From the IMG/VR virus record IMGVR_UViG_3300031228_000002, positions 1 through 41,221 of that record: a DNA stretch of 41,221 nt; one strand, given 5' to 3'. The translations under genes were made by a program, and so were the position numbers. Under the pieces are notes generated by a model. That model did not search any database. It was not told the origin of the DNA and worked only from the letters and a program-made list of their open reading frames with translations. The stretch comes from a virus. Positions 770 to 41,221 of this stretch are shown here, one piece after another (the first letter of the stretch is position 1; every line of letters begins with the position of its first letter).

Positions 770-809
770 GACGGGCTCCCTTCGGTGGTGGTGGATCAGG
801 TGGGAGTGG

Positions 810-1844
810 TCAGGCGGCGTTTCCGGTGAGGAGCGCGGTCATCTCCCGCAGTTGCGCGGCACCGGCCTGCGCGATGGGGAGGCCGTAGGACTGCTCGAAC
901 TCGGCGTCGAGGTTGTCGAGGCCGACCTTCGCGGCGGCGGCGCGCAACTGGTGCTCGGCGACATCCGCCTCGGACGGGCCCTCGGTGACGCTCTCCACCA
1001 CCACGGCGTCCACGACGCCGTCCTCGTCCGGCTGGTCACCGGCCGGTGCGGGCTTGGCGAGCTGCTGACCCCGGGCGATCAGATACGCGCCCAACTCCTG
1101 CGAGTCCTCGCCCACCTTCACCGTGGCGGCGAGGAGACCGGACGCGTTCGCCTGCCGGTACAGCTCCTTGACCACGGCCTGGTCGGTCGTCGTCCCGGCG
1201 GCGTCGGCGTGGGCCTGCTCAGGCGTGATGGTGTCTTCGCCCTGTTGCGGGCCGGGTGTGGCCCACTGGTCGGTCTGGCCGGGCTCGACACGGCGCAGCT
1301 GCTGCACCGGGGCCTCCACCGGGATCCCGTCCGCGTCAACGTTCGCCCCGAGCTCTTCCGGCGTATAGATCGTGCCCTGCAAGATCTCCGAGCAGGCGGC
1401 GCGCGCTACCTCGGTGATCGCCCGGGCCTTCAACATCGCGGCCGGGAAGTTCTTCCACGTGTCCTTGCCGGTCAGCCTTGCGGCCTGCGCCCGCTCGATC
1501 GTCCACACGACCTCGAAGGTGAAGTCGGGGTCATCGGCGCGGATGATCTGCGCGACCGCGCGCCGGTCGTCGCCGTTGACGCGCAGCTTGTGACCGGCCC
1601 GTCGGACGAGACCGGCGATCAGGTCAGCGGACGCGGTCGGCTTGCCGTTGATGACGTGGATCGACTGCACGGCGGTCAGCGGGGCGACGCCGAGTGTCTG
1701 CCCGTACGAGATGGCCCACAGCAGGTTGGCCGGCTTGCCCTGGTACTGCCGGGGCAGCAGGTCGGAGGCGGCCATGGCCTTGGCGTAGTCCATCTGTGCG
1801 GCGAGGGCGCCGGGTTCGAAGGTGGCGGGGAGATTGGTGGTCAC
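810..1844 (-). CDS. recT: RecT-family single-strand annealing recombinase (344 aa)
   Basis: The N-terminal half fits the RecT pattern (MDYAKAMAASDLLPRQYQGKPANLLWAISYGQTLGVAPLTAVQSIHVINGKPTASADL). GTG start in a GTGA overlap with the upstream stop. Confidence 0.85.
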   Translation of the reverse strand: MTTNLPATFEPGALAAQMDYAKAMAASDLLPRQYQGKPANLLWAISYGQTLGVAPLTAVQSIHVINGKPTASADLIAGLVRRAGHKLRVNGDDRRAVAQIIRADDPDFTFEVVWTIERAQAARLTGKDTWKNFPAAMLKARAITEVARAACSEILQGTIYTPEELGANVDADGIPVEAPVQQLRRVEPGQTDQWATPGPQQGEDTITPEQAHADAAGTTTDQAVVKELYRQANASGLLAATVKVGEDSQELGAYLIARGQQLAKPAPAGDQPDEDGVVDAVVVESVTEGPSEADVAEHQLRAAAAKVGLDNLDAEFEQSYGLPIAQAGAAQLREMTALLTGNAA

Positions 1845-3416: not shown

Positions 3417-3455
3417 GGTGACCTCGATTTCTGTGTGGGTTGAGGTGTGCCGATA

Positions 3456-3485
3456 GGGGTCGCCCCGTCCGACCGGGGTGGCCCC
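3456..3485 (-). terminator. Hairpin between the Xis-like gene and downstream early genes
   Basis: ggggtcgccccg / cggggtggcccc: a 12-bp stem with two mismatch or wobble positions and a 6-nt loop, inside an 81-nt gap. Confidence 0.4.
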
Positions 3486-3497
3486 TCTTACGTGGGG

Positions 3498-18768: not shown

Positions 18769-18834
18769 GGCGTCCCCTTTCCTGTGAGACGGGCCCCCGA
18801 CCGGGTGGGGTGGGGTCAGGGGCCCGCGTCCTGA

Positions 18835-29149: not shown

Positions 29150-29407
29150 CTACTTGATCCACACTGCTGCGAGGGCGCCCAGTACGGTGACCGCCGCCCC
29201 TCCCAGTATGGCCGTGAGCCACGCGGGCAGCTGGCGGGACTTGAGGGCGTTCATGTCGGTACGCAGCTCGGACACGTCGTCCTTCACGTCGGTCATGTCG
29301 CCCTGGACCTCTGCCAGGGCCCGGCCGTGGGCGCGCTGCTCCTGGTAGATGTCCCACAGGGACACAAACACCCCGTTGTTCGGGCCCGAGTCGGGGACGG
29401 TGGTCAC
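29150..29407 (-). CDS. Tail-anchored membrane protein of the lysis cassette (85 aa; holin- or lysis-accessory-like)
   Basis: GTG 29407 is in a GTGA overlap with the endolysin stop. Coiled-coil N-terminus and C-terminal TM LPAWLTAILGGAAVTVLGALAAVWI. Confidence 0.55.
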   Translation of the reverse strand: MTTVPDSGPNNGVFVSLWDIYQEQRAHGRALAEVQGDMTDVKDDVSELRTDMNALKSRQLPAWLTAILGGAAVTVLGALAAVWIK

Positions 29408-30348: not shown

Positions 30349-30417
30349 GGTGTGCCCCCTGTCTGTCCGTTGGGCAATACCCTACGCCGACCTGCGATTG
30401 TGCCGTCGGGGCGTGAC

Positions 30418-30456
30418 GAAGCCCCTGCCGTGGGGGATCGGTTCGGCAGGGGCTTC
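30418..30456 (-). terminator. Strong hairpin at the early/late boundary
   Basis: Perfect 13-bp stem gaagcccctgccg / cggcaggggcttc with a 13-nt loop, in the 209-nt gap upstream of the endolysin gene. Confidence 0.55.
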
Positions 30457-30487
30457 GGGCCCGAGTAGCGCCGCAGCCAGCGAGCGC

Positions 30488-30541
30488 GGGTGGGATGGGT
30501 GCAGGCTACTGCGGGGGTGGGATGGGTGCAGGCTACTGCGG
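30488..30541. repeat. Perfect 27-bp tandem duplication (x2, plus a partial third start)
   Basis: gggtgggatgggtgcaggctactgcgg at 30488-30514 and 30515-30541, non-coding. Confidence 0.95.
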
Positions 30542-30557
30542 GGGTGTGACAGCGGGG

Positions 30558-30887
30558 CTACGGCCGCCACTCGTCCCGGTAGTCGGGGTGGTCGGCGTAG
30601 GGCAGGAGCTCGAGTGGGAGCAGTGTGGCCGCTAGGTCGTAGGAGTCGTGTCCGGCGTTGATGGCGTCTTCGATCTGCTTCAGCCGCTTCCGCTTGGCGT
30701 CGACTTCGGCGAGGACGCGGGCCGGGGGCCATGCTGAGCGGCGCCACTCAGGCGGCTGGACCGTGTCCTCAACCCACTGACCTTGGATCATGCGGCGGGT
30801 GGTCGTCGTCCGCTTCAACGCGGTCTCGGCCTCTCGCTGCTCTTCGTCGAGGCGGGTCCGCAGGAACTGCACCATGTCGTCGCTCAT
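30558..30887 (-). CDS. DUF6221-like protein (109 aa)
   Basis: FLRTRLDEEQREAE ... PPARVLAEVDAKRKRLKQI pattern. RBS GAGAGGA. Confidence 0.6.
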   Translation of the reverse strand: MSDDMVQFLRTRLDEEQREAETALKRTTTTRRMIQGQWVEDTVQPPEWRRSAWPPARVLAEVDAKRKRLKQIEDAINAGHDSYDLAATLLPLELLPYADHPDYRDEWRP

Positions 30888-32145: not shown

Positions 32146-32286
32146 TCAGTGGAGGAGGGCTACGCCGAGGGCGGCGAGGGCGAGGATCAGGGTGGTGGTG
32201 CCGAGGGTGAGGGGCAGGTCGCGGCGGGCGATGTGGGAGAGGCCGCAGAACCCGCCGACCATGGCGAGCAGGAACAGGAGCCACAT
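32146..32286 (-). CDS. Small two-helix membrane protein (46 aa)
   Basis: Not in the track. ATG shares 1 nt with the upstream TGA. Sequence MWLLFLLAMVGGFCGLSHIARRDLPLTLGTTTLILALAALGVALLH. Confidence 0.45.
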   Translation of the reverse strand: MWLLFLLAMVGGFCGLSHIARRDLPLTLGTTTLILALAALGVALLH

Positions 32287-33242
32287 CAGCGGGCCTGCCG
32301 TGCTTCTCGGAGGTACCGCTTCGCGGTGGCGGGGCTGACGCTCAGGGTTTCGGCGACCTGGCTGGAGGTGAGCCCGGGGTCCTGAGCCAGGAGCTCAGCG
32401 ACCTGAGCCACGGCCTTGGCGCGCTGAGCCGACTGGGCGTTGAGGTGCGCGGAGAACCCGAACGCCTGGGCCTGTGGCTCGTCGTGTTGGGCCGGGGGGT
32501 CAGATGCTGCGACCTGCGATGACGTGATCAACAGGGGGGCGGTGTGAGCCTGGGGCGCAGCCGGTTGGGCGTGGGGCTCAGCCATGGTCTGAGCCGCGGG
32601 CTCATCGGGTTGAGCCTGCGGGGCCGGCGCGGCGGTGAGGGCGATCGGGGTGCGGCGGTTGATCGTGGCGCGCTTCTCCATCCGCTCGAGGGCGACCTCG
32701 AAGTCGGCGTCGTCGCGGGCGAGCGTGATGCGGGACTCGGCGCGGATGCGGGCGATCTCGGCGTCGGCGGCGCGGTCGAGTTGCTCCAGCTGGGCGTGAT
32801 GGAGGCGGGCGGTGTACTCGGAGTCGCGCATCACGTCGTGGATCTCGGCGAGCTGCTGCTCGGTGAGGGCGGCCGGGTCGCGCAGTGAGGCGAGGGCGAA
32901 CGTGGCGACGGCCTTGCCGACGAGGACGACGAACGGCCCGGCGACAGCTTGCGCCCTGCTCGTCTCGTCGATGCCGTGGAGGACGAGGAGGAACCCGACG
33001 CCGCAGGCGATCAGCCATCCGACAGCCGGGGCGACCCACGTCCTCCCGCAGATGGTGATGCGCCGGTACTCGGCCCACATGACGGTGATCCAGCCGATGT
33101 CACCGGCGACGGCGACGGAGAGGCCGAAGGGGCCGGAGTTCATGAGGTCGGTGATGGCGTAGCCGGACCAGATGAGGGAGAGGCCGGCGAGCACGTAGGC
33201 GCCGTAGAGGATCGGCGGCTGGCGGAAGTTCGGGGTCTTCAC
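32286..33242 (-). CDS. Membrane protein (4 TM, DUF2637-like) with coiled coil and C-terminal HTH (318 aa)
   Basis: GTG follows GGAGGGAG. N-terminal TM helices. C-terminus TSSQVAETLSVSPATAKRYLREARQ is HTH-like. Confidence 0.65.
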   Translation of the reverse strand: MKTPNFRQPPILYGAYVLAGLSLIWSGYAITDLMNSGPFGLSVAVAGDIGWITVMWAEYRRITICGRTWVAPAVGWLIACGVGFLLVLHGIDETSRAQAVAGPFVVLVGKAVATFALASLRDPAALTEQQLAEIHDVMRDSEYTARLHHAQLEQLDRAADAEIARIRAESRITLARDDADFEVALERMEKRATINRRTPIALTAAPAPQAQPDEPAAQTMAEPHAQPAAPQAHTAPLLITSSQVAASDPPAQHDEPQAQAFGFSAHLNAQSAQRAKAVAQVAELLAQDPGLTSSQVAETLSVSPATAKRYLREARQAR

Positions 33243-33269
33243 GGTGCTCCCTCCGGAGCGGGGGATGGG

Positions 33270-33307
33270 GCCGCGCCCGAGCGGCGGTGGGGTTGCTCGG
33301 GCGCGGC
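33270..33307 (-). terminator. Intra-operon hairpin
   Basis: Perfect 13-bp stem gccgcgcccgagc / gctcgggcgcggc with a 12-nt loop, in a 75-nt gap. Confidence 0.5.
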
Positions 33308-33317
33308 GGTCGGGGTG

Positions 33318-33479
33318 TCAGCGGCGGTGCGCGTCCTGTTTGGCGAGCTGGGCGCGGACGTCGGTGGCGGCCTCGTAGTCGCCGGCGCAGTCGGCCGGTG
33401 TGGCCGGGGCGTCGACGATGGGGTTCGGCCGGGGGGTGCGGTCCGGGGCGGGCGCGGGCTCGTACGTGGGGGTGTCCAT
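33318..33479 (-). CDS. Small hypothetical protein (53 aa)
   Basis: ATG 33479 shares 1 nt with the upstream stop. Sequence MDTPTYEPAPAPDRTPRPNPIVDAPATPADCAGDYEAATDVRAQLAKQDAHRR. Confidence 0.45.
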   Translation of the reverse strand: MDTPTYEPAPAPDRTPRPNPIVDAPATPADCAGDYEAATDVRAQLAKQDAHRR

Positions 33480-33790
33480 CACACGCCTCCCGCCGCTGCG
33501 CGCAGCTGGAGGGCGACCTCGCCCGCGGTGTCCCGCGGGCGGAGTTCGGGGAGCACGGCCACGGCGCGCTGCGCCGCCTGCTCGGCGACGATCTCGGGGA
33601 GGCCGGCGCACACCTGCTCGTACCCGGCGTCGAGCGCTTCGGTGAGCACGGGCGGGGTGCAGGTCTGGAACGGCTGCTCGGTCTCGAGGTGGTGGGCGGC
33701 GGCGAGGAGGAGGCGGTGCGCCCATGTGGGCTCGGACAGGATGCGCGCGAGTAATGCGTCGAGCGGGTGGGGCTCTGTACGGTTGCTCAT
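33479..33790 (-). CDS. Hypothetical protein, first gene of the second minus-strand operon (103 aa)
   Basis: ATG 33790 lies 6 nt after AGGAGGA. The 187-aa track start was rejected. Confidence 0.6.
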   Translation of the reverse strand: MSNRTEPHPLDALLARILSEPTWAHRLLLAAAHHLETEQPFQTCTPPVLTEALDAGYEQVCAGLPEIVAEQAAQRAVAVLPELRPRDTAGEVALQLRAAAGGV

Positions 33791-33929
33791 GGTCATTCCT
33801 CCTGGTGATGCAGGTGGATGGCTGGCCCCGACCGGAGGTGCGAACTCTGGCCGGGGCCGTTCTGTTGACGCACTGCAAGACTGGCAGAACTTCTGGACAA
33901 ACGTCAAGAAGTTCGGGGAGGATGTGGCC
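33791..33929. promoter_or_regulatory. Divergent intergenic control region
   Basis: TTGACG hexamers on both strands (33865-33870 plus; 33907-33902 minus). Inverted repeat gaacttct (33887-33894) / agaagttc (33907-33914). Lower GC. Confidence 0.45.
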
Positions 33930-34355
33930 GTGCCCAAGAACCCTGAACACGAGGGGAGCCCCCGCTTGTTGACCATCAGCCAGATCGCGGAGGAGCACGG
34001 GGTCAGCCGCACGTCCGTACACACGTACCGACGCGGCGGCACCTTCCCTCAGCCAGTGCAGGTGGAAGGCACCACGAAGCTCCGGTACCGCGCTGACGAG
34101 GTGGCCGCATGGTTCGCGGCGAACCCGAAGCAGCAGGGGAAGCGGACAGACCTCACCCCTACCGACCAGCAAGGAGGGCCAGCAGTGGCCGAACAGACCG
34201 TGGCGCAGCCGTTGAGTGCTGACGCCCGCGCGATCCTGGGGATCGTCTGGAAGTGGATCGAGAGCGCCAACGACGGCTACGGGTCGGACGTGGGCGACTT
34301 GCAAGGCGACTTGGAGCGAGCGGGGTACGGGCCACCGGCGTCAGACGAGGAGTAG
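33930..34355 (+). CDS. HTH_17/excisionase-like DNA-binding protein with acidic C-terminal domain (141 aa)
   Basis: GTG 33930 lies 7 nt after GGGGAGGA. LLTISQIAEEHGVSRTSVHTYRRGGTFPQPV ... RYRADEVAAWF. It is the only plus-strand gene in the early region. Confidence 0.65.
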   Translation: MPKNPEHEGSPRLLTISQIAEEHGVSRTSVHTYRRGGTFPQPVQVEGTTKLRYRADEVAAWFAANPKQQGKRTDLTPTDQQGGPAVAEQTVAQPLSADARAILGIVWKWIESANDGYGSDVGDLQGDLERAGYGPPASDEE

Positions 34356-34370
34356 TGCCCGTGCAGCAGC

Positions 34371-34399
34371 AAGCCCCCGGCCGTGGTGGTCGGGGGCTT
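34371..34399. terminator. Bidirectional terminator between convergent genes
   Basis: 9-bp stem aagcccccg / cgggggctt with an 11-nt loop, between the stops at 34355 and 34414. Confidence 0.5.
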
Positions 34400-34413
34400 C
34401 GTCGTGCCTGGGG

Positions 34414-34665
34414 TCAGCGGGCGTCGGGCTGCTCCTCGGTGGCCGGCTCGTCGTCCCACACGATCTCGGTGGCGCCGCCGTGTCCGTGGACGGCTTCGGC
34501 GTCGGCCATGGAGTCCCAGAACACGATCGACGGGCGCGGCCCGAGCCATCGGACGGAGGCGGTGCCGTCGGGCCAGCGGACGCCGACGGCCACGGTGCCG
34601 GTACCGGAGACGCCGGACACGTCGTGGTGGCGCTGAAGGTGGAAGCGGCGCGGCAGCGCGGTCAT
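34414..34665 (-). CDS. Hypothetical protein (83 aa)
   Basis: ATG 34665 shares 1 nt with the upstream stop. Last gene of the first early operon. Confidence 0.6.
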   Translation of the reverse strand: MTALPRRFHLQRHHDVSGVSGTGTVAVGVRWPDGTASVRWLGPRPSIVFWDSMADAEAVHGHGGATEIVWDDEPATEEQPDAR

Positions 34666-34931
34666 CAGTTGCCCTCCATGGAGCCGGTGCACTTGCGGTG
34701 AGCGAGGTAGCGGCTGTACGGCTCCTCGCACTTGAAGCAGCCGGGGCCTTCGAGTGTGAGGAGGTTCTCGTGGTCGAGGAGGGCCGGGCCAGCGGGCTCG
34801 CCTGCGTTGAGGCGGCGAATCATGTCGTCACCCACGCGGTGCATGGTGAGGATGGTCCAGAGGTGTTCGCCGGGCCCAGGGTCCGCCAGCTCGGCGTGGA
34901 CCTTGGTTGCGGGTACGGGGACTTGGGTCAT
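34665..34931 (-). CDS. Hypothetical protein (88 aa)
   Basis: ATG 34931 follows AGGAGACCGAG. Contains CFKCEEPYSRYLAHRKC. Confidence 0.6.
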   Translation of the reverse strand: MTQVPVPATKVHAELADPGPGEHLWTILTMHRVGDDMIRRLNAGEPAGPALLDHENLLTLEGPGCFKCEEPYSRYLAHRKCTGSMEGN

Positions 34932-35439
34932 CTCGGTCTCCTGTTTCGGGGTCATCGGCGGCCGCGGTTTCGGTTGAGGGCGCGGCGGGTGGCGCGGTTC
35001 GGGCGGGGTGTCGGGGTGTCGTCGTCGGGGGTGACGGTTTCGACGACGACGAGGCGGGTGTCCCATGTGGTGCCGGGGCGCGGGGGGTGCCGGTCTCCAC
35101 GGCGTCCCACCGGTCCCAGTCGTTCTCGGATACGCGGGCCACGCACCCGCCGCCGGGCCAGAGCGTGCCGCCCCTGGGCCAGTCGGCGAACTGGTCAAGC
35201 ACTTCGCGGAGGGTGGCGGCCAGCTCGTCGCGGCGCTCCTCGAGGGCGCGGTACTGCTCGGCCAGCAAGTCGACAGCCCGCTCGGCCTTCGCGGCACGGG
35301 CGGTGGCCGACGCGAACGCGGCGTCGGCGTTGCGCAGTTGGCGGGCGAGCTCGGTCTCCTCGGCGGCAGCCAGCTGCTCATACAGGGCGTCGAGGGCGTC
35401 GTCGGTGATGGTGTTGGCGGTGTGGCGCTGTGCGGTCAC
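34828..35439 (-). CDS. Coiled-coil early protein; literal ORF 203 aa, but the coding signal switches frame near 35082-35087 (true end probably 34952)
   Basis: GTG 35439 is in a GTGA overlap. The N-terminal ~125 codons have high GC3. After that, high GC3 moves to the -1 frame, which ends at 34952. Confidence 0.5.
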   Translation of the reverse strand: MTAQRHTANTITDDALDALYEQLAAAEETELARQLRNADAAFASATARAAKAERAVDLLAEQYRALEERRDELAATLREVLDQFADWPRGGTLWPGGGCVARVSENDWDRWDAVETGTPRAPAPHGTPASSSSKPSPPTTTPRHPARTAPPAAPSTETAAADDPETGDRDDPSPRTRNQGPRRAGGPWARRTPLDHPHHAPRG

Positions 35440-35702
35440 AGGTAGGTCCCCTTCACGGTGATGGTGTCGACGGGTTTGGCGGGGGTCAGGTTGTGGAGGT
35501 CGCGGAACGCCTGCTCGTCCTCACGGATGCGGGCGGTCAGGATGGCGGCGGCGTCCTGCGCGGCTGTGGCGGCATGGACGGAGTGCGGCCGGGCCGCCTG
35601 CTCGGCACGAACAGCGCGGCGGCGGGGCGGGTACAGGAAGTGCCCGAGCGGCAGGCTGGCTATGACCGCGATCAGGGCGACGAACGCGACGACGGCGGTC
35701 AT
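35436..35702 (-). CDS. N-terminally anchored small membrane protein (88 aa)
   Basis: ATGA overlap. Hydrophobic N-terminus MTAVVAFVALIAVIASLPLG. Confidence 0.6.
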   Translation of the reverse strand: MTAVVAFVALIAVIASLPLGHFLYPPRRRAVRAEQAARPHSVHAATAAQDAAAILTARIREDEQAFRDLHNLTPAKPVDTITVKGTYL

Positions 35703-36127
35703 GAGGCGAGGGCCATCGGCTCGGATGCCCCGTCGCGGGCTTCACGGCGCTGCTGGCGCGCTGCCCGGCGTTCGGCGGACGCCTGGGCCTTCGCGTCCGT
35801 GCACGGCCCGCACGGGGTCTCGCGGTATTTCAGGTGCTCGCGGTATGCCGGGTCGCTGCCGCACGGCTGGCGGATGCGGCCCTCGTGGTCGAGCCACCAG
35901 CCGCGGCCGCGGTGGAGTTGGAGCCGTTCGGTGGCGGTGAGCCCACCCCACGTGCCCCACTGCTCATGCTCGTCGATGGCCCAGGTCTGGCAGGCGGCGA
36001 GGAGCGGGCAGGCGTGGCAGAGTGCCTTGGCGGCCTGTTCGTCGTCGTGCTCGCGGGACCAGAAGAGAGCGGCGGTGTCGGGGGTGCAGGAGGGGCGGCC
36101 GGTGGTGAGGAAGTCGGGCAGGTGCAT
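35699..36127 (-). CDS. whiB: WhiB-like protein fused to a CGS-x3-Y-x2-H...C-x2-C module (142 aa)
   Basis: ATG 36127 follows GAGAGGA. C-x(n)-CHACPLLAAC ... GTWGGLTATER is a WhiB pattern. The 246-aa track start was rejected. Confidence 0.7.
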   Translation of the reverse strand: MHLPDFLTTGRPSCTPDTAALFWSREHDDEQAAKALCHACPLLAACQTWAIDEHEQWGTWGGLTATERLQLHRGRGWWLDHEGRIRQPCGSDPAYREHLKYRETPCGPCTDAKAQASAERRAARQQRREARDGASEPMALAS

Positions 36128-36177
36128 GGCCGGTCCTCTCGGGAGGGGTGGCGGGTGGGTGTGGTGTGCTTGGGCTG

Positions 36178-36208
36178 GGGACGGCCGCGGGTCCAGCGCG
36201 GCCGTCCC
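36178..36208 (-). terminator. Intra-operon hairpin
   Basis: Perfect 12-bp stem gggacggccgcg / cgcggccgtccc with a 7-nt loop, after the stop at 36217. Confidence 0.5.
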
Positions 36209-36216
36209 GTCGGCGC

Positions 36217-36612
36217 TCACGAGGCGGGGGTGTCGGCGGGCTTGGCGTTTGCGAGCTTCAGCAGGACGGCGGCGTGACAGTGGTCGGGCTCGCCCGGCTG
36301 GGGAAGCGGGCAGGTACAGGCGAGGTCCTTGCCGCGCAGAGCGTGGAGTTCGGCCAGGACGCGGCGCCGGTCGAGGACCTGGCGCCCGACACGGTAGGTC
36401 TCCTCGAACCAGCCGCCTTCGGTGCCGACGCGAAGCCACTCGGCGTAGCTGTCGGCGCAGGCGCGGTGCGGCTCACTCCACTCCGCCTCGATGGCCTGCT
36501 GAATGGTGAACGGGTTCCCGAACCGGCTGGGCCGACTGACGATCACGCAGTTCTCGGGCTTGCGCCAGCCCTTGGTGCGCTTGCGCTGGATACGGACGGG
36601 CTTGTCGGTCAT
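36217..36612 (-). CDS. DUF4326-like protein (131 aa)
   Basis: ATG 36612. RIQRKRTKGWRKPENCVIVSRPSRFGNPF ... RGKDLACTCPL ... CHAAVLL pattern. Confidence 0.7.
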   Translation of the reverse strand: MTDKPVRIQRKRTKGWRKPENCVIVSRPSRFGNPFTIQQAIEAEWSEPHRACADSYAEWLRVGTEGGWFEETYRVGRQVLDRRRVLAELHALRGKDLACTCPLPQPGEPDHCHAAVLLKLANAKPADTPAS

Positions 36613-36619
36613 CGGGTTC

Positions 36620-36648
36620 TTCTCCTTCGGTGGGTGGGTGCCGGTCAG
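36620..36648 (-). repeat. Gene-junction repeat, copy A
   Basis: ttctccttcggtgggtgggtgccggtcag. It contains the TGA of the upstream gene and the SD of the downstream gene. Confidence 0.9.
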
Positions 36649-37100
36649 TCGCGGCCGGTGAACTGGCGCATGGACTCGACGGCCATCTCGTAGAGGCTTC
36701 GCACGCCGATGAGGAGCGCGTCCGCGTCCCGCTCGGTGCGGACGTTGGCGATGGCGTCGAAGAGGGCGTAGGCCGTATCCCGCTGGCCGTTCATCCAAGC
36801 GGTGGAGAACTGGGCGGCGAACCGAGGTCCGGCAGGCACCTCGTTGGCGTCCGCGGGCAGTCCGGCCCGGAGGGCGATGAGCCCGAAGCCGTCGGCGGTC
36901 GGCGCCTGGCGCCTCGCGTTCATGGCGATGCTCTCGGCGAGGGCGGCACAGAGCGCTGCGGTGGGTGTGAGTCCTCGCAGGATCATCGGCTTGAGCATGT
37001 TGAGGCCGGTCTGGGGGTTGCCGGTCATGCCGTGCGCGAGGGCCGCCATGATCGTCTCGGAGTCGTCGGGGAGCGGTTCGGTCGGGATCGGATTCGTCAT
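36645..37100 (-). CDS. Hypothetical protein (151 aa)
   Basis: ATG 37100 follows the GAAGGAGAA of junction repeat B. Its stop lies inside repeat A. Confidence 0.65.
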   Translation of the reverse strand: MTNPIPTEPLPDDSETIMAALAHGMTGNPQTGLNMLKPMILRGLTPTAALCAALAESIAMNARRQAPTADGFGLIALRAGLPADANEVPAGPRFAAQFSTAWMNGQRDTAYALFDAIANVRTERDADALLIGVRSLYEMAVESMRQFTGRD

Positions 37101-37103
37101 GAC

Positions 37104-37140
37104 TTCTCCTTCGGTGGGTGGGTGCCGGTCAGGCGGCGGG
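37104..37140 (-). repeat. Gene-junction repeat, copy B
   Basis: ttctccttcggtgggtgggtgccggtcaggcggcggg, identical over 37 nt to copy C. Confidence 0.9.
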
Positions 37141-37446
37141 AGGCTTGGGCTGCATGTCGAGCAGGGCGCGGATGACGGCGCGGACCGCGGAGGCAGACTG
37201 CCGGGACGGGAAGCGGGCCACGTGGGCTGCGAGGACCTTCCATGCGTCTCGCTCGTCACGGCGGGCCAGCCAGCCGACGAGGCAGCGTTCGTGGACGAGG
37301 CCGTCGAGGGTCTTGGCCATCCGGCCGTCGTATTCGGTGTGGCAGTGAGGGCAGTCGGGGAGCCCGTAGGGGGCGCCGTGCTCGTCGCGTCCGCCGTCGT
37401 CGGACGGGTCGATGGTGATCTCAGGTAGGTCGAGGGTGATGCGCAT
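37129..37446 (-). CDS. Hypothetical protein with CPHC motif (105 aa)
   Basis: ATG 37446 follows the GAAGGAGAA of repeat C. Its stop lies inside repeat B. The 308-aa track start was rejected. Confidence 0.65.
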   Translation of the reverse strand: MRITLDLPEITIDPSDDGGRDEHGAPYGLPDCPHCHTEYDGRMAKTLDGLVHERCLVGWLARRDERDAWKVLAAHVARFPSRQSASAVRAVIRALLDMQPKPPAA

Positions 37447-37449
37447 CGT

Positions 37450-37486
37450 TTCTCCTTCGGTGGGTGGGTGCCGGTCAGGCGGCGGG
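37450..37486 (-). repeat. Gene-junction repeat, copy C
   Basis: Same 37-mer as copy B. Here it is entirely non-coding, because the upstream gene stops at 37499 with TAA. Confidence 0.9.
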
Positions 37487-37498
37487 GGTGGTGGGTGG

Positions 37499-38077
37499 TT
37501 ACGCGGCAGGAACAGCAGCAGGGGCGGGCACGGTCGACCCGGTCGTGCGGAGCCGGCGGTCGGCGTCCGTGTTGGCGTACCGGCAGGCGTCGCACGCCTT
37601 CTCGCCGTTGCGCCGGTGCTTCTGGTAGCCGGGGCGGGTGCCGCATGCGACGGGTCGCCCCTTGGCCTTCGCCCGGGAGGCTGCTTTGACCTTCCGAATC
37701 CTCGCGTTGTGCGCGGCCCGACACGCGTCGTCGACCGGTTCACCCCAGCGGATGTGCCGCTCGTAGGCGCCGGCCGTGCCGCATGGGGAGAGCGGCTTCC
37801 CGCCGGTGCGGCGCCGCGCCTGCTGGGGCACCGGGCCGCGACGCTTCTTCGCCAAGGCGGCCCGCTGCTTCGGCGACAGGCCGCCACGGATACCGGCACG
37901 GCTCTCAGCGCGTTCGTTCTTCTCCTCGGTAAGCGCTGCCTCGAGGCATGCTCCGCGTACCGGGCAAGCGGCACAGAACTTGCGCGCCTCGCGCAACTCG
38001 TCGCCCGTCTCGGCGAGGAACAGATCGGGGTCGGCCGTGGCGCACGCGGCGCCACGCTGCCAGTCGCTGCGGGACAT
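37499..38077 (-). CDS. whiB: WhiB-like protein fused to two CGT-x3-Y-x2-H-x3-GE-x2-C-x2-C modules (192 aa)
   Basis: WQRGAACATADPDLFLAETGDELREARKFCAACPVRGACLEAAL is a WhiB pattern. C-terminal modules CGTAGAYERHIRWGEPVDDACRAA and CGTRPGYQKHRRNGEKACDACRYA. Confidence 0.8.
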   Translation of the reverse strand: MSRSDWQRGAACATADPDLFLAETGDELREARKFCAACPVRGACLEAALTEEKNERAESRAGIRGGLSPKQRAALAKKRRGPVPQQARRRTGGKPLSPCGTAGAYERHIRWGEPVDDACRAAHNARIRKVKAASRAKAKGRPVACGTRPGYQKHRRNGEKACDACRYANTDADRRLRTTGSTVPAPAAVPAA

Positions 38078-38093
38078 CAGGTCTCCTTCGGGG

Positions 38094-38873
38094 TCAGGCG
38101 GCGCAGTGGGTGTGGGTGGTGCGGCCGGGGCGGGGGACCATGCGTTCGTGGCAGCGGGCGCAGCGGATGAAGTCGGCGGGCTGCTGCTCGTGGTGGTCTT
38201 GTTCTTGGGGGGAGTCGATCTTTTGGGCTTCGGGAGCGCCCACTACCTGAGGTTTGAAGATCACCCCGGCCCCGTCATGGGAAAGCTCTTGGGTAATACC
38301 TGGGTTGTTCGGGTCGCGGGGGCCCGAACCATTCGGGTCGCGGGGGCCCGAACCCATACGGGTCGCGGGGGCCCGAACTTCTTCCGGCGCCGGGTCCTCA
38401 AGTTCGGGTCGCGGTCCCCCGAACTGGTTCGGGTCGCGGTCCCCCGAACTTTCGGTGGGCTCCTGCCACGGCGCGGGGCTCTTCCCGGACGGCCGGCGGC
38501 TGCTCTTCAGCGACGACTCGGCGGCTCCCCAGTCGGGCGACGGGTCGACCATGAGGACGTACAGGGTGGGCTTCCCGCGCCGCTGCTCGCCCTTCACGAG
38601 GATCACTCCGGCGGCGATGGCGGCGTTGATGTAGCGGCGGGCGTCCTTCTCGCTGGCGCCCGATGCCTTCGCGATGTCCTGGATCCGGATCGGCTTGTCC
38701 GGGAAGCGGAGTTCACCGTTGGCGTTGGCCATGGCGCGCACGGCGTAGAGCAGGGTGAGGAAGCCGCGCCGCAGGGCGGTGGGCATCTCTCGTGACCAGC
38801 GCCATGCGAGGGCGTTCCCGTACGCGTTGGGGACGCTCCCGGCGGCGCGGGTGGCCTGCTCGTCTGTGCTCAA
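38094..38873 (-). CDS. Winged-helix replication-initiator-like protein with internal repeats (259 aa)
   Basis: TTG 38873 follows ACGGAGA; the alternative start is ATG 38786. N-terminal wHTH-like LLYAVRAMANANGELRFPDKPIRIQDIAKASGASEKDARRYINAAIAAGVILV. C-terminal CxxC...HC. Confidence 0.6.
   Translation of the reverse strand: MSTDEQATRAAGSVPNAYGNALAWRWSREMPTALRRGFLTLLYAVRAMANANGELRFPDKPIRIQDIAKASGASEKDARRYINAAIAAGVILVKGEQRRGKPTLYVLMVDPSPDWGAAESSLKSSRRPSGKSPAPWQEPTESSGDRDPNQFGGPRPELEDPAPEEVRAPATRMGSGPRDPNGSGPRDPNNPGITQELSHDGAGVIFKPQVVGAPEAQKIDSPQEQDHHEQQPADFIRCARCHERMVPRPGRTTHTHCAA
38307..38449. repeat. Five 23-bp iteron-like repeats (candidate origin of replication) inside the initiator-like gene
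   Basis: (g/a)t(t/a)cgggtcgcgg(ggg/tcc)cccgaac at 38307, 38331, 38356, 38402 and 38427. Each has inverted ends GTTCGGG...CCCGAAC. Confidence 0.6.
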
Positions 38874-38961
38874 GGCGGGTCTCCGTCGTCGGCGTGGTGC
38901 GGGGGTCGTCGTCCGGGGCGGGGCTCGGGGCCGGCCGCCCCGGACGGTCCTGCGGGGAGGG

Positions 38962-39297
38962 TCAGCTGAGGTCGGGCACGACGAGCCAGCCGGGCTCGCG
39001 CGGCGGGATGCCGAGTGCCGACGCGGCAGCGAGCAGGGTCTTGTTCCACGCCTCGTACTGCTCGGGCAGGTACGAGTACGGCGTGACCACCTCGAACTTG
39101 CCGAGGTCCACCGAGGTGGAGTGGGTGACGAGGAACGTCATGTCCTCGTCGTAGTGGCCGGCGTTCAGGTAGCCGACGTCCACGCCGTGCTGCTCGTTGT
39201 GGCGCTGGAGCTGGGTGTCGAGGTCGTCCAGGTCGCCGGGGTGGGTGTCCGGAATCTGGAAGCCGTAGGCGAAGTAGGTGGAGTGGTACATGCCCAT
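38962..39297 (-). CDS. Hypothetical protein (111 aa)
   Basis: ATG 39297 shares 1 nt with the upstream TGA. The 155-aa track start was rejected. Confidence 0.6.
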   Translation of the reverse strand: MGMYHSTYFAYGFQIPDTHPGDLDDLDTQLQRHNEQHGVDVGYLNAGHYDEDMTFLVTHSTSVDLGKFEVVTPYSYLPEQYEAWNKTLLAAASALGIPPREPGWLVVPDLS

Positions 39298-39518
39298 CAG
39301 AGTTGTCCGTTCTTGTAGGCGTCGGCCGCGTCGGCGGCCTGCTGTGCGATGGCCTGCTCGGCGCACGTCTTGTGTGCTGGGCTGCGCTTCGAGTCGCGGA
39401 GGTACGTGAACCGGCCGCAGTACCGGCACGGCCTCGGAGTCGAGGACCAGTGCGACCGGTCCGACCAGTCAAGGAGTCCGGACTCCGGCAACGGGGACGG
39501 CCGCGGCCGGCGGGTCAC
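39297..39518 (-). CDS. Small zinc-ribbon-like protein (73 aa)
   Basis: GTG is in a GTGA overlap. CRYCGRFTYLRDSKRSPAHKTCAEQ. Confidence 0.6.
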   Translation of the reverse strand: MTRRPRPSPLPESGLLDWSDRSHWSSTPRPCRYCGRFTYLRDSKRSPAHKTCAEQAIAQQAADAADAYKNGQL

Positions 39519-40411
39519 GCTGCCTCGTCCCGCGTGCGGTCGCGGCGCTGCCCGGTGTGGATCTCCTGCACGATCGTGCGGACCGTGGACAGAGCCATGT
39601 CGAGCCGCTCGGCGATCTCCTCCGGCTCACGGCCGAACGCGGCAAGGTGGGCGATCTCCTGGCGCCGCAGAGCCGCCAGCTCGTTCCGCTTCAGCTCCCG
39701 CTCGGCGGCGGCCGGGTCGAACATCGGGTCGTCGATGTGACCCATGTCCTCCCACCACAGCGGGTCGGGCCACTGCCGGTCGGCCGCCCACTGCCGGGTG
39801 CGGGCGGCCAACCACGGCGGAATGCCGTGGTCTTCCGGCCGCTGGTCACGCAGGTCCGTGTAGCAGTCGGCGACCGCACGGGACGTGGGCCGGTACACCT
39901 CGGTCTGCTGCGTGATCCGCCAGACGGTCGTCTTCGCCACCCCGATACGGGGCGCGAGGCTCCGCATCGGGAACCCGACCGCGGCCAAGGCACGGATCCG
40001 GCGGACGGAGCCGACAGCGCTGACCATGCCGGGAGTGACCGAGTCCGCGGTGACCGCCAGGATCTTCGCGGCCGTGTCCGGGCGGGTGCGCTTCTTCCGC
40101 CGGATCTTCGGGCTGAGGTCGTACACGAAGCCGGTGACCGTGGCCGTGTACAACCCGGTCCGTTCCGCGATCACCTCGTACGACAGGCCGGCCGCGTTCA
40201 GAGCGAGGAGGTGCTGGCGTACGGGCTCGGCGTCCACGAGGGGCTGCCAGGTGCCGTATCCGATCTTGCGGTAGCGGGTGCGCTGGTAGGCGGCGATGTA
40301 GTCGCGGCACGGCTGGCACTTGCACTTGTGGTACTTGGCGCGGGACAGGGTGCCGTGGTCGGGCAGGGGGCGGTGGCCGGCGGCGCGGGTCTCGGTGGCG
40401 GTCTGCGTCAC
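39515..40411 (-). CDS. Multi-HTH DNA-binding protein (298 aa)
   Basis: GTG is in a GTGA overlap. N-terminal HGTLSRAKYHKCKCQPCRDY module. Internal HTH-like segments. C-terminus EEIAERLDMALSTVRTIVQEI resembles sigma region 4. Confidence 0.65.
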   Translation of the reverse strand: MTQTATETRAAGHRPLPDHGTLSRAKYHKCKCQPCRDYIAAYQRTRYRKIGYGTWQPLVDAEPVRQHLLALNAAGLSYEVIAERTGLYTATVTGFVYDLSPKIRRKKRTRPDTAAKILAVTADSVTPGMVSAVGSVRRIRALAAVGFPMRSLAPRIGVAKTTVWRITQQTEVYRPTSRAVADCYTDLRDQRPEDHGIPPWLAARTRQWAADRQWPDPLWWEDMGHIDDPMFDPAAAERELKRNELAALRRQEIAHLAAFGREPEEIAERLDMALSTVRTIVQEIHTGQRRDRTRDEAA

Positions 40412-40659
40412 GGCTTCACCTCGGCGCGCATCGCCGGGCCCTTGCGCGGAGCCTGCGGCTTCGGCTGCTCCCGGTTGAGGCGCTCACGCAGGGCGGCGAT
40501 CTCCTGATCCTTCGCCTCCAACTGCACGACCAGGCGGCCGACGACGCGCTTCGCGGACTCCTTCTCTTCGCGCTCCTCCTGGAGCCAGTCCGCGTACAGG
40601 GAGGCGCGGGCCTCAGCGGTACGGCGCCGGGCAAACACCCAGTCCGTGAGCCAGCTCAT
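40408..40659 (-). CDS. Coiled-coil protein (83 aa)
   Basis: ATG 40659 is in an ATGA overlap. The 110-aa track start was rejected. Confidence 0.55.
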   Translation of the reverse strand: MSWLTDWVFARRRTAEARASLYADWLQEEREEKESAKRVVGRLVVQLEAKDQEIAALRERLNREQPKPQAPRKGPAMRAEVKP

Positions 40660-41204
40660 GCGCGGGCCCCCGCCCCGGGCTGCGCGGGCAGTACGGCAGC
40701 GGCCGGCCCGGCAGGCAGCGGCAGCGCGCCCGTTCGCCACGCCTCGCCGATCGCGGCCTTCCCCTCATCCGGGACGGTCAGTCGCGTGTACGCCGCGCGG
40801 CCCTGCATCACGACGCCAGGCACCTCGTGGATGACGCCCGACTCGGGGTCGGCCCACTCGGCTGTACCAGCGGCCGTGAGCGCGGCGAGCACCTTCTTCT
40901 GGAACCCGGGCTTCACCTCGGTGACGAACCGGCGGGTGATCTCGCTGCCGTAGTTCTCAAGGACCCAGGTGGTGAACTTGTCGGGGTCGGTGACGGCGGC
41001 GGTGGGCTTGGGCTGGACGAGGCTCACGGTGCCGACGTCGGTGCTGTCGTCGAGGCTGACGGTGATCTTCTGGGTTCCGGTCTCGGCCTTGGCCTCCCGC
41101 AGGCCGGCTTCCAGTTCCTTCTTCGCGGTCTTCAGTTGGTCGCCGATGGCGTCGGCGAGGGTGGAGAGGACGGCGACGGTGCGCGCGGTGTCCTTGAGGC
41201 TCAT
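40656..41204 (-). CDS. Hypothetical early protein (182 aa)
   Basis: ORF track. AAGGAGA RBS. Its 5' end is duplicated at 1-78 by the terminal overlap. Confidence 0.7.
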   Translation of the reverse strand: MSLKDTARTVAVLSTLADAIGDQLKTAKKELEAGLREAKAETGTQKITVSLDDSTDVGTVSLVQPKPTAAVTDPDKFTTWVLENYGSEITRRFVTEVKPGFQKKVLAALTAAGTAEWADPESGVIHEVPGVVMQGRAAYTRLTVPDEGKAAIGEAWRTGALPLPAGPAAAVLPAQPGAGARA

Positions 41205-41221
41205 GTGTGGTCTCCTTGGGG
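41127..41221. repeat. Terminal direct repeat, right copy
   Basis: Identical to 1-95. Confidence 0.95.

Follow-up and report, generated by a model that had tools for sequence, protein, structure and literature searches.

A repeated gene-junction sequence in the early operon of a Streptomyces phage as a candidate translation adaptor and recombination linker

Phage genomes frequently swap single genes, and how they do so without loss of expression is a question of long standing. For conserved 'linkers', the classical proposal, there are to our knowledge few concrete examples, the PeSLs of T4-type phages being the best of them. The question is raised again by a repeat, here called M, that lies between early genes in a 41,221-nt stretch of viral DNA (the window). 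In its first-pass annotation the repeat was described as stoperator-like or like a start-associated sequence (SAS), with a boundary for recombination given as an alternative.

An exact search of the window finds TTCTCCTTCGGTGGGTGGGTGCCGGTCAG at 36620-36648, 37104-37132 and 37450-37478, all on the minus strand. No fourth match to this 29-mer was found in the window with up to 3 mismatches allowed, and 100 shuffles gave 0 chance matches. The last two copies are identical over 37 nt (37104-37140 and 37450-37486). By the gene map, the copies occupy short minus-strand gaps at 36613-36644 (32 nt), 37101-37128 (28 nt) and 37447-37498 (52 nt), which separate the consecutive minus-strand genes 36217-36612, 36645-37100, 37129-37446 and 37499-38077, and all copies, in the window and in relatives alike, stand in the sense orientation. 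Specifically, M is laid out as (CCC GCC GCC) TGA, CCGG CACCCACCCACC and GAAGGAGAA, and the ATG follows after 3-7 nt. Taken over all copies in the window and the relatives, the distance from its end to the ATG or GTG is 3-9 nt, and in all three window copies GAAGGAG, the Shine-Dalgarno sequence (SD) of the next gene, lies 5-9 nt ahead of the ATG.

Copy 1 (36620..36648, minus strand; CTGACCGGCACCCACCCACCGAAGGAGAA then gaacccgATG) ends gene 36645-37100 with its TGA, and its SD serves the DUF4326 gene 36217-36612. Copy 2 (37104..37140, minus strand; CCC GCC GCC TGA CCGGCACCCACCCACC GAAGGAGAA then gtcATG) provides gene 37129-37446 with its last three codons (Pro-Ala-Ala) and its stop, and gene 36645-37100 with its SD. 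Copy 3 (37450..37486, minus strand), identical to copy 2, provides the SD of gene 37129-37446, and its TGA is not used as a stop, lying beyond the WhiB gene's own TAA (37499-37501). On all of these points of number, placement, SD and stop codons our analysis agrees with the first-pass annotation. The further argument made there, that M is not a conserved protein tail, is right in that the third TGA is non-coding, but it is weaker than stated because this TGA is in frame with the TAA and Pro-Ala-Ala codons precede both. The stretch at 37487..37501 (minus strand; (CCT GCC GCG) TAA CCACCCACCACC) is a remnant of the native WhiB 3' junction and is laid out like M, with Pro-Ala-Ala, a stop and a C-rich spacer; in the related contigs L002, L005 and L134 the spacer of this junction leads directly into an SD (GGAGGA) without M. 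The repeat is confined to non-structural early genes, where it precedes genes of different families, and no copy was found among the late genes of the window. Canonical copies number only 1-3 per genome, a small number for a regulatory code of general use, the window having three within 0.9 kb and, in addition, two diverged ones.

The diverged copies are recognised by the left part of the repeat, GCCGCCTGACC, which recurs exactly at 808-818 and 38092-38102. With these it has 4 exact copies where 0.18 would be expected, and each of them lies at a gene end on the minus strand. The junction at 770..818 (minus strand; GCCGCCTGACC ACTCCCACCTGATCCACCACCACC GAAGGGAG cccgtcATG) separates the RecT gene from gene 143-769, and that at 38078..38102 (minus strand; GCCGCCTGACC-CCGAAGGAGACctgATG, without the C-rich core) separates gene 38094-38873 from the WhiB gene 37499-38077. 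In relatives the latter position carries CCCGCCGCCTGA, a 26-nt C-rich spacer and AAGGAG, behind differing upstream genes. Both junctions had been listed as relatives of M in the first-pass annotation (770-812 and 38078-38100) and are retained. The C-rich core by itself is not enriched, with 14 matches against 11.9 expected at up to 2 mismatches, and for this reason neither the 27-nt tandem repeat (30484-30546) nor the late junction at 18803-18820, both proposed as further members, was kept in a wider 'CACC-core family'. A third, at 36141-36170, belongs to a different, hairpin type of junction; however, a clear right half of M stands at this place in L132, and from this sequence the two are plausibly related.

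Relatives were sought in two ways. A metagenome collection was scanned once with an exact 19-mer of M, and a second set was obtained by way of the WhiB protein, without use of the motif. About ten metagenomic phage contigs bear M, between at least 10 unrelated gene pairs, with at least 10 different genes following the repeat and at least 7 different genes ahead of it. Approximately 36 nt (CCGCCGCCTGACCGGCACCCACCCACCGAAGGAGAA) are identical in L002, L055, L056, L071, L084, L085 and L079 and nearly identical in L001 and L064. The sequence of copy 1 through ATGAC recurs before other genes in L079, L056, L002 and L064, and the order WhiB-TAA-spacer-M is found in L071, L084 and L085 with different genes behind. 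The invariance of the central 19 positions among contigs found with the pattern is by construction, since the search preset them, and only the flanks and the relatives found by protein are unbiased. In these flanks, positions -14 to -1, +19 and +20 are 75-100% conserved, conservation collapses at +21, and it thus ends 3-8 nt short of the start codon. The homologous coding DNA adjoining M is only 77-89% identical and the spacer from the WhiB TAA to M carries indels, while M itself is unchanged. Among the relatives found through WhiB, drifted copies are present in L132 (four; WhiB 66% identical) and L133 (one; 52%), and M is therefore an old element that has been maintained. L132 has a g151-M-DUF4326 module that is 97.5%/90% identical to that of the window, yet its M is 4 nt shorter, so the exact length is not essential, and distant relatives have lost the left half of M or carry another sequence in its place. 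Since a single metagenome (Ga0299914) is the source of most contigs with M, part of the perfect identity may reflect recent common descent or gene conversion and not selection; in L055 and L079 some of the DNA flanking M agrees with the window at 96-99% identity. Cultured relatives gave only chance matches when 50,697 phage records were searched by megablast with the region and by blastn with M, and the terminase is <50% identical to that of any cultured phage. Judged by sequence, M appears to belong, as a module, to a clade of temperate Streptomyces phages that are uncultured.

These relatives place M at the left border of a variable gene slot, the right border of which is a conserved hairpin, H. 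The slot lies between two conserved neighbours, both WhiB-like, a 192-aa protein on the left (37499..38077, minus strand; Pfam Whib E = 2.6e-15) and a 142-aa protein on the right (35699..36127, minus strand; Pfam Whib E = 2.4e-15), and its content varies between DUF4326, methyltransferase and various ORFan genes. In the window it holds three stacked cassettes, in the order WhiB-M-g105-M-g151-M-DUF4326-H-WhiB. The gene g105 (105 aa; 37129..37446, minus strand) has no family match, M on both sides, and homologues of 74-89% identity in many Streptomyces genomes. The gene g151 (151 aa; 36645..37100, minus strand) likewise has no family match and M on both sides; homologues are present in Streptomyces genomes, a search of IMG/VR for relatives found none, and g151 followed by M is seen in L079, with a different gene behind, and in L132. 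The DUF4326 gene (131 aa; 36217..36612, minus strand; Pfam E = 4e-20) lies between copy 1 and H, a position taken in relatives by a DNA methyltransferase or unrelated ORFs. That M travels with DUF4326 was rejected, as 16 other viral contigs carrying DUF4326 are without M and H, and tandem gene duplication was rejected because the three cassette proteins fall into separate clusters. The H-type junction (36128..36216, minus strand), before the WhiB gene 35699-36127, consists of a 12-bp G+C hairpin (36178-36208) and a conserved flank, CAGCCCAAGCACACCACAC (36158-36177), behind which follow a C-rich leader and the SD of this WhiB gene. The junction folds with -40.3 kcal/mol (z = -2.3), and its hairpin has no T-tract. 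Block 36158-36232 is 90-100% identical in L002, L055, L064, L071 and L079 while its flanks change, and H-like copies occur in L132, L134, L138 and L142.

The slot reads WhiB-M-DUF4326-H-WhiB in L085, WhiB-M-(239 aa)-H-WhiB in L084, M-methyltransferase-H-WhiB in L001, M-(66-87 aa ORFs)-H in L055, L064 and L056, and g151-M-(269 aa) in L079. L085 is the exact M-by-M deletion form of the window slot, its left flank being similar to the left flank of copy 3 (80%) and its right flank to the right flank of copy 1 (81%). Moreover, every relative shows a break in homology at M, although this is only partly diagnostic because the breakpoints of phage mosaics coincide with gene boundaries in any case. 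The end of contig L090 falls on the very nucleotide at which L079 parts from the window, which is what a branch of the assembly graph at a polymorphic joint would produce. Thus it is the alternative reading of the first-pass annotation, a recombination boundary, that is best supported.

What M might contribute at the level of RNA was considered through its folding. Shuffled sequences fold as well as M RNA (z = +0.55, +1.14 and -0.55), and the same holds for M with its flanks on either strand, on which ground a riboswitch, attenuator or terminator was rejected. Rfam gave no match at E <= 1 in 33000-41221, and a promoter scan of 33500-41221 gave 0 sigma-70-like sites with the E. coli consensus, which may miss Streptomyces promoters; M has no TANNNT-like -10 element. 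A terminator scan gave two terminator-like matches, both on the wrong strand and at chance level. Extension of the frames by eye spoke against read-through or frameshifting at UGA-C, copy 2 giving no fusion to the downstream ORF and copy 1 meeting an early stop. M is, however, predicted to be accessible. For the three window genes, opening of positions -20 to +12 costs 7.7-9.0 kcal/mol against a median of 15.3, which ranks them 1, 3 and 8 of 65, although these ranks are not independent because the three copies share one sequence. In the relatives the predicted cost is 7.2 kcal/mol for 10 M-preceded genes and 12.6 for 108 others (Mann-Whitney p = 1.7e-5). The pairing of the M SD with the anti-SD is average (ranks 29-31 of 65), and the idea of a 'strong SD' was rejected accordingly. 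Matches to the 19-mer in a genome collection came almost all from unrelated organisms, and thus could not be used as relatives, and were taken as a test of convergence; of 48 distinct cases in such unrelated bacteria, 38 have an open start codon 3-11 nt downstream of the 19-mer, compared with 22% under the null.

We propose, with moderate confidence, that M is a portable junction which acts as a ribosome-binding adaptor and as a patch of homology for cassette exchange. Along the mRNA it would first close the upstream gene with its final codons and stop (Pro-Ala-Ala-TGA), then add an unstructured spacer of 16 nt that is poor in G (CCGGCACCCACCCACC), and lastly present an SD (GAAGGAG) of average strength at 5-9 nt from the start codon that follows. 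With a spacer that is predicted to be unable to fold on itself, and so keeps the SD open, any gene placed behind M would have an accessible ribosome-binding site, at which ribosomes may either bind afresh or carry on from the nearby stop codon, and this accessibility probably raises translation. The presence of the same 29-37 (up to about 45) bp at several non-allelic junctions and in co-occurring relatives would make M a patch of homology, at which single-gene cassettes may be deleted, inserted or swapped, with H as the other border of the exchanged slot. Recombination would then probably take place within M itself, and the enzyme is plausibly the phage's own RecT-like single-strand annealing protein (810..1844, minus strand; Pfam RecT E = 1.9e-5, PHROG 561 E = 6e-55). 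Published minima for pairing are 23-27 bp with Redβ and 31-34 bp with RecA (PMC3945230), and the identical length of M, 29-37 bp, is above the minimum of RecT/Redβ-type recombinases.

The conservation of M can also be read in other ways. As its SD is only average, something besides SD strength must be conserved, and M might be recognised in trans, by a small RNA or by an RNA-binding protein of the phage or host, which would co-ordinate translation of the accessory early genes. Such a factor was proposed for SAS, whose anatomy M matches, and its specificity could explain why bases beside the SD that cannot pair with 16S rRNA (CCACC upstream and, in the commonest subtype, AAGAACC downstream) are invariant and persist in the distant L132 and L133. 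We nevertheless consider this unlikely, given that no candidate factor was found, that a genome has only 1-3 canonical copies, that distant relatives dispense with the left half or replace it and a 4-nt deletion in the core is tolerated, that accessibility alone explains the G-poor composition, and that similar leaders occur in unrelated bacteria which cannot share a phage factor. It is very unlikely, in our opinion, that M is a passive scar of recent duplication or recombination with no function beyond an ordinary SD. The three genes it separates are unrelated, which speaks against tandem gene duplication, and M is perfect beside DNA of 77-85% identity and beside an indel-bearing spacer. It is also recognisable in L132 and L133 although their WhiB proteins are only 66% and 52% identical, and M-preceded genes are consistent outliers in accessibility. 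What a scar would account for is that letter-perfect copies derive mostly from a single metagenome, and the 96-99% identity of flanking DNA in L055 and L079 does indicate that some events are very recent.

More improbable still is the stoperator- or operator-like site of the first-pass annotation, where a phage DNA-binding protein would block transcription of the early operon in lysogens. The phage does encode several HTH proteins (4212-4526, 6417-6659, 39515-40411 and 32286-33242), of which the products of 4212-4526 and 6417-6659 are candidate repressors, and M is asymmetric, orientation-locked and intergenic and overlaps stop codons, as do the stoperators of L5 (PMC6550527). However, true stoperators number 20-30 per genome, on both arms and including promoter operators (PMC6550527), whereas M has 3 canonical and 2 diverged copies, at ribosome-binding positions inside one early operon with 0 promoter-like sites near. 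A DNA site would not need a fixed short distance to the start codon, and repressor sites co-vary with the repressor in heteroimmune phages, whereas M is identical where neighbouring genes differ by 10-25%. The least credence is given to M's C-rich tract as an RNase E cleavage site that would divide the polycistronic early transcript, with H protecting the 3' end, as a Rho loading patch that would impose polarity where upstream translation fails, or as a recombination-stimulating antisense G-quadruplex (GGTGGGTGGGTGCCGG). Actinobacterial RNase E and Rho prefer C-rich, unpaired RNA, and M is C-rich and unstructured, with a stable hairpin lacking a T-tract at the opposite end of the slot. Against this, no data point specifically to cleavage or termination, a Rho site would be expected to exceed 16 nt, no more than two G3 runs are present on the antisense strand, and neither the conservation of the SD nor its halt just before the ATG would be accounted for.

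Of the readings considered, the portable junction is thus the one we prefer, and it would mean that a translation-initiation region can be both an expression adaptor and a recombination linker. M is a defined, short, letter-perfect junction bordering a variable slot in temperate phages and prophages of Streptomyces, and the cargo of this slot (methyltransferases, DUF4326 proteins and ORFans) is typical of candidates for counter-defence. Streptomyces genomes with a related prophage include GCA_030816995.1 and CP109417.1. If our proposal is true, M would be a simple marker for accessory-gene hotspots in actinophage genomes and a compact ribosome-binding module, insensitive to context, with which operons could be engineered in high-G+C Streptomyces, and it would suggest a testable function for the SAS of mycobacteriophages. 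A wider hypothesis, which we regard as possible and put forward tentatively, is that M and H form a gene-cassette exchange system of temperate actinophages, in which RecT would excise, capture and stack single accessory genes via M linkers of 29-45 bp, possibly through circular intermediates, the open ribosome-binding site of M would secure expression, and such repeats would be general in the early regions of Streptomyces phages. In function such a system would correspond to integron cassettes or to the PeSLs of T4, with a translation signal as its basis in place of a promoter. A TGACCAACCACACCCCG...ACAGGAG pair of junction repeats is found in a prophage of Streptomyces sp. NBC_01511 (L135), and lineage-specific repeats of this kind would, if the hypothesis is true, make junction modules general in these regions.

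Among known systems, the SAS of cluster K mycobacteriophages (Pope et al. 2011) have a 13-bp consensus, GGGATAGGAGCCC, with 11-19 copies per genome in the non-structural half (PMC3203893). The likeness to SAS drawn by the first-pass annotation is well founded as regards anatomy. SAS and M are both asymmetric and in one orientation a short distance upstream of starts (3-7 bp for SAS), mostly ATG; both combine an SD core with conserved flanking bases unable to pair with 16S rRNA; both sometimes contain the upstream stop codon, serve non-structural genes only, belonging to different families (at least 10 downstream gene families for M), and are kept across related phages, for M as drifted copies in L132 and L133. 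The function of SAS is likewise unproven (PMC3203893). However, their sequences are unrelated (GGGATAGGAGCCC versus ...CACCCACCCACCGAAGGAGAA), M is 29-37 nt long with 1-3 (up to 5) copies per genome against 13 nt and 11-19 copies for SAS, and it has no ESAS-type 17-bp inverted repeat upstream. Furthermore, M is tied to a variable gene slot and mosaic breakpoints, which are not reported for SAS. Because the sequence differs and the 3 canonical and 2 diverged copies lie in one operon, M is an analogue of SAS and not a member. Stoperators of cluster A phages (L5, Bxb1) share with M their asymmetry, orientation with transcription, location in short gaps and occasional overlap with stop codons (PMC6550527); they are, in contrast, 13 bp long, with 20-30 sites genome-wide, promoter operators among them, and proven repressor binding (PMC6550527), against 29-37 nt in one operon for M.

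In its role, M is closer to elements that border exchanged genes. The linkers of the modular theory for lambdoid phages are also short conserved module borders enabling exchange between diverged temperate phages (De Paepe et al. 2014, PMC3945230), and the M phage, like those with Rad52-like relaxed recombination, has its own single-strand annealing protein, identities of ~25 bp being usable (PMC3945230). M differs in being a letter-perfect translation-initiation region repeated within one genome, and the exchanged unit is a single small gene where that of lambdoid phages is a functional module. The promoter-early stem-loop (PeSL) cassettes of T4-type phages (Arbiol et al. 2010, PMC2839356; Comeau et al. 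2014, PMC4122927) offer the nearest parallel of function. Like M, they are concentrated in hyperplastic regions rich in small ORFans, the genes they flank are present, absent or replaced between close relatives, deletion forms correspond to exchange between the copies on either side, and a stem-loop belongs to the system; the slot maps and the flank test have M bounding insertions, deletions and replacements of slot genes in the same manner. A PeSL, however, is about 100 nt long against 30-45 nt for M, has a strong sigma-70-like early promoter where M has none (0 sites, E. coli consensus), and contains its stem-loop, whereas the hairpin H is separate, at the other border of the slot. Mini-circles have been demonstrated for PeSLs, and the hosts and recombination machinery differ, that of the M phage being RecT-type. 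Taken together, these comparisons suggest that M resembles SAS in its anatomy and PeSL linkers in its probable role.

The stretch of 41,221 nt has a G+C content of 69.7%, and its bases 1-95 recur exactly as bases 41127-41221, and the contig is therefore either terminally redundant or circular, its unique length being 41,126 nt. Its genes, almost all encoded on the minus strand, include those for a tyrosine integrase (4839-6101), a RecT-like annealing protein (810-1844), a large terminase (27216-28670), an amidase endolysin (29404-30348) and two WhiB-like regulators (35699-36127 and 37499-38077), and by this content it is a temperate actinophage. No cultured close relative was found with megablast, which gave chance matches only, and the terminase is less than 50% identical to that of every cultured phage. 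Homologues of two genes of the region discussed here are common in Streptomyces genomes, and a prophage of Streptomyces sp. V1I6 holds a related WhiB gene and a hairpin element (H, see below), making Streptomyces the most likely host.

The junction repeat, M, is present as three exact 29-mer copies starting at 36620, 37104 and 37450 (copies 1, 2 and 3), with copies 2 and 3 the same over 37 nt; no further match was found in the window at up to three mismatches, and none in 100 shuffles. On the coding strand M reads (CCC GCC GCC) TGA CCGG CACCCACCCACC GAAGGAGAA, followed by 3-7 nt and then ATG, and it occupies the gaps between the genes at 37499-38077 (WhiB), 37129-37446 (g105, 105 aa), 36645-37100 (g151, 151 aa) and 36217-36612 (DUF4326). 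These copies, and the use of the TGA as the actual stop codon of g105 and g151, are as described in the first-pass annotation, which had also taken the TGA of copy 3 as non-coding and argued from this that M is not a conserved protein tail. The WhiB gene does end earlier, at a TAA; however, TAA and TGA are in frame with each other, Pro-Ala-Ala codons stand ahead of both, and since the region thus reads as two tandem units of Pro-Ala-Ala-stop plus C-rich spacer, the argument is weakened, although not reversed.

Diverged relatives of M had been proposed at the RecT junction (770-812) and at 38078-38100, and the left part of M, GCCGCCTGACC, is indeed exact at both junctions (808-818 and 38092-38102); in total it has four copies where 0.18 are expected, each on the minus strand and at a gene end. 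The C-rich core alone is not enriched (14 occurrences against 11.9 expected at up to two mismatches), and for this reason we do not accept as members a late junction (18803-18820) and a 27-nt tandem repeat (30484-30546; 2.3 copies, 97% matches) that had also been proposed. The tandem repeat and then a hairpin (gaagcccctgccg...cggcaggggcttc, ~30417-30455) lie in a 209-nt non-coding gap (30349-30557) between genes 30558-30887 and 29404-30348, which is probably an operon boundary or regulatory region; GCACCCATCCCACCC of this gap has merely a loose likeness to the M core.

The left part of M, CCCGCCGCCTGA, forms the end of g105, gene 38094-38873 and RecT in the window, and of the unrelated genes c11, c5 and c102 in relatives. 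The G-poor leader thus extends into the final codons of the gene upstream, and unrelated proteins consequently share a Pro-Ala-Ala end. The termini of RecT, g105, the 259-aa product of gene 38094-38873, c11, c5 and c102 are Pro/Cys/Asn-Ala-Ala-stop, all encoded by GCCGCCTGA (808-818, 37127-37137 and 38092-38102 in the window; relatives L084, L071, L085, L002 and L056), and their C-terminal Ala-Ala is similar to the end of the SsrA degradation tag. Gene 38094-38873, which has a weak HTH-like match, also contains five iteron-like units of ~25 nt (38308-38450; three TTCGGGTCGCGGGGGCCCGAAC and two GTTCGGGTCGCGGTCCCCCGAAC), each partly palindromic, with a similar repeat block in L084 (5774-5823); the block looks like a replication origin within an initiator gene, as in lambda O.

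Scanning three public collections with the exact 19-mer CACCCACCCACCGAAGGAG yielded the true relatives L001, L002 (= L069), L055, L056, L064/L068, L071, L079, L084 and L085, although most of them, and most perfect M copies, come from one metagenome (Ga0299914). In all of this set, where the 19 central positions are fixed by the search pattern, the motif runs beyond these to ~36 nt, CCGCCGCCTGACCGG...GAAGGAGAA. In the flanks, conservation is 75-100% at positions -14 to -1 and +19/+20, fades upstream from about -15 and drops abruptly at +21, 3-8 nt ahead of the start codon. Nearly every contig has a different gene downstream of M (DUF4326, a DNA methyltransferase, ORFs of 239, 212, 269, 87, 87 and 66 aa), and the upstream gene likewise varies. 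Neighbour genes homologous to those of the window have a DNA identity of only 77-89%, and the short spacer from the WhiB TAA to M shows substitutions and indels, whereas M itself shows none.

Because the search had set the 19 central bases, relatives were sampled a second time, independently of the motif, through the WhiB protein. L132, with 66% identity in WhiB, contains four drifted M-like junctions along with three H-like hairpins: the junction gccTGAccggcacccaccgaaggagaagaaccaATG lies between a g151 homologue and DUF4326, and ...ccacaccacccacccaccgaaggagaagaccATG and ...ccggcacccacccatcgaaggagaagaaccgATG each follow an H-like hairpin. L133 (WhiB 52% identical) retains ...gaccacccaccgaaggagaagacccgATG, and behind the same WhiB gene L002, L005 and L134 show a like layout in other sequence (TAA/TGA ccacccgc(c/a)accaccaccGGAGGA...ATG). 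These drifted and variant junctions indicate that M is one version, in sequence, of a wider style of junction (stop, C/A-rich G-poor spacer, Shine-Dalgarno (SD) sequence). M has been kept across considerable divergence, the best-conserved part being around the SD (CCACCGAAGGAGAAGA). In L132 the g151-M-DUF4326 module is 97.5% and 90% identical to the window while WhiB is only 66% identical, which argues that the module itself has been exchanged; its M is shorter by 4 nt, probably through slippage in the CACC repeat. More distant Streptomyces prophages have the same junction style with their own repeats. L135 (Streptomyces sp. NBC_01511, CP109417.1), which has a g105 homologue, carries TGACCAACCACACCCCG...ACAGGAG twice, in a near-identical junction pair at 3307-3501 (TGAccaaccacaccccgcctacacaggagcacgccGTG and TGAccaaccacaccccgacccaacaggagaaacccGTG), a hint that repeated junctions specific to a lineage are common in the early operons of Streptomyces phages.

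In the relatives, gene calls and protein clusters delimit a variable slot with M as its left border and H as its right. H is likewise conserved and non-coding; it is made up of a 12-bp G+C hairpin (36178-36208) and the flank CAGCCCAAGCACACCACAC, and folds at -40 kcal/mol (z = -2.3). The H block (36158-36232) is 90-100% identical in five relatives (L002, L055, L064, L071 and L079) with differing flanks; L132, L134, L138 and L142 also carry H, and several carriers are Streptomyces prophages. The hairpin has no T-tract, is followed by CCAGCC(C/A)AGCACACCAC, and may act in termination or attenuation, in stabilising a 3' end or as a site of processing; hairpins of the H type with CCAGCC(A)AGCACA behind them are widespread.

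The slot is arranged as WhiB-M-g105-M-g151-M-DUF4326-H-WhiB in the window, WhiB-M-DUF4326-H-WhiB in L085, WhiB-M-(239 aa)-H-WhiB in L084, M-methyltransferase-H-WhiB in L001, M-(small ORF)-H in L055, L064 and L056, and g151-M-(269 aa) in L079. In L085, the left flank of M matches that of copy 3 (80%) and the right flank that of copy 1 (81%) of the window, which is, at the sequence level, the product expected of exchange between two M copies. L071 and L084 have only the left flank in common with the window, and L002 only the right. L079 begins 92 nt ahead of M; it agrees with the window at 99% identity through ...GAAGGAGAAGAACCCGATGAC and is unrelated beyond. An independent assembly, L090 (ENA ERZ27256897 k141_3187009), is identical to the window over 36.6-40 kb (WhiB-M-g105-M-g151-M) and ends at ...GAAGGAGAAGAACCCGATGAC, the exact nucleotide of the window/L079 divergence, which is how an assembly graph behaves at a polymorphic joint. 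Contigs breaking at M suggest cassette polymorphism within the sampled populations. Phage breakpoints tend toward gene borders in any case, which limits the weight of those at M.

On the RNA, the sense strand of M is unstructured (z = +0.55, +1.14 and -0.55 for the copies against shuffles). M has no Rfam match, and a promoter scan gave no promoter-like site in its region. Accessibility was computed as the free energy needed to open positions -20 to +12 within their native surroundings (-70 to +50). In the window, the three genes behind M rank 1, 3 and 8 of 65 (7.7-9.0 kcal/mol, the median being 15.3), the copies not being independent for this ranking; in the relatives, the median is 7.2 kcal/mol for 10 genes that follow M and differ in coding sequence, and 12.6 kcal/mol for 108 others (Mann-Whitney p = 1.7e-5). 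SD:anti-SD pairing is average (ranks 29-31 of 65), and the distinctive trait of M is, as modelled, accessibility rather than SD strength. The 19-mer was also checked for convergence in unrelated bacteria (Gemmatimonadota, other Actinomycetota, Proteobacteria): an open start codon follows it at 3-11 nt in 38 of 48 distinct cases, the null being 22%. In MAGs of Longimicrobiales and other Gemmatimonadota (records L010-L012, L014, L019, L020, L023, L027, L030-L032, L034-L037, L039-L041, L043 and L058) it lies within a conserved ~60-nt leader (ccggagcg.agcccgggacgcaac.ggagag.agaacccaCACCCACCCACCGAAGGAGgtgaac.cATGacctggaacggc...) with several copies per genome, an unrelated multi-copy gene family or leader.

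The comparisons show M to be a conserved stop-spacer-SD module, locked in orientation, at the borders of cassettes, and its predicted accessibility is high. We propose that its G-poor spacer would keep the ribosome-binding site, set 17-21 nt after the stop codon, open whatever gene follows, and that ribosomes binding anew or re-initiating there would allow a newly acquired gene to be expressed in the early operon. Identical copies at non-allelic junctions, in one genome, in co-infecting relatives or in resident prophages, could be used in homologous exchange by which cassettes are deleted, inserted or swapped. Efficient pairing is reported to need at least 23-27 bp for Redβ and 31-34 bp for RecA (PMC3945230); the 29-37 bp identity of M (up to ~45 bp in a subtype reaching ATGAC) is above the former and about the latter, and the phage encodes RecT. 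A letter-perfect M would be explained by frequent exchange combined with selection on the translation signal. A less likely alternative is that a trans-acting factor recognises M.

The repeat observation of the first-pass annotation holds as a whole, and its interpretation is partly supported: of its readings, that of M as a recombination boundary sequence fares best, and the likeness to start-associated sequences (SAS) is borne out by the anatomy of M. Stoperators are 13-bp repressor-bound sites, 20-30 genome-wide and some in promoters (PMC6550527), and M differs from them in number, distribution and promoter association; the stoperator reading is not supported. Nearest in anatomy are the SAS of cluster K mycobacteriophages, which are asymmetric, in one orientation, 3-7 bp before starts, combine an SD with conserved non-pairing bases, and lie within the non-structural genome half ahead of genes of different families (PMC3203893). 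However, M is not a member, having another sequence, greater length, far fewer copies and no ESAS inverted repeat. Nearest in genomic role are the PeSLs of T4-type phages, conserved stop-to-ATG intergenic modules of hyperplastic regions that mediate modular shuffling (PMC2839356), although M lacks their promoter and stem-loop. M belongs with these known conserved junction or linker sequences, as a new version.
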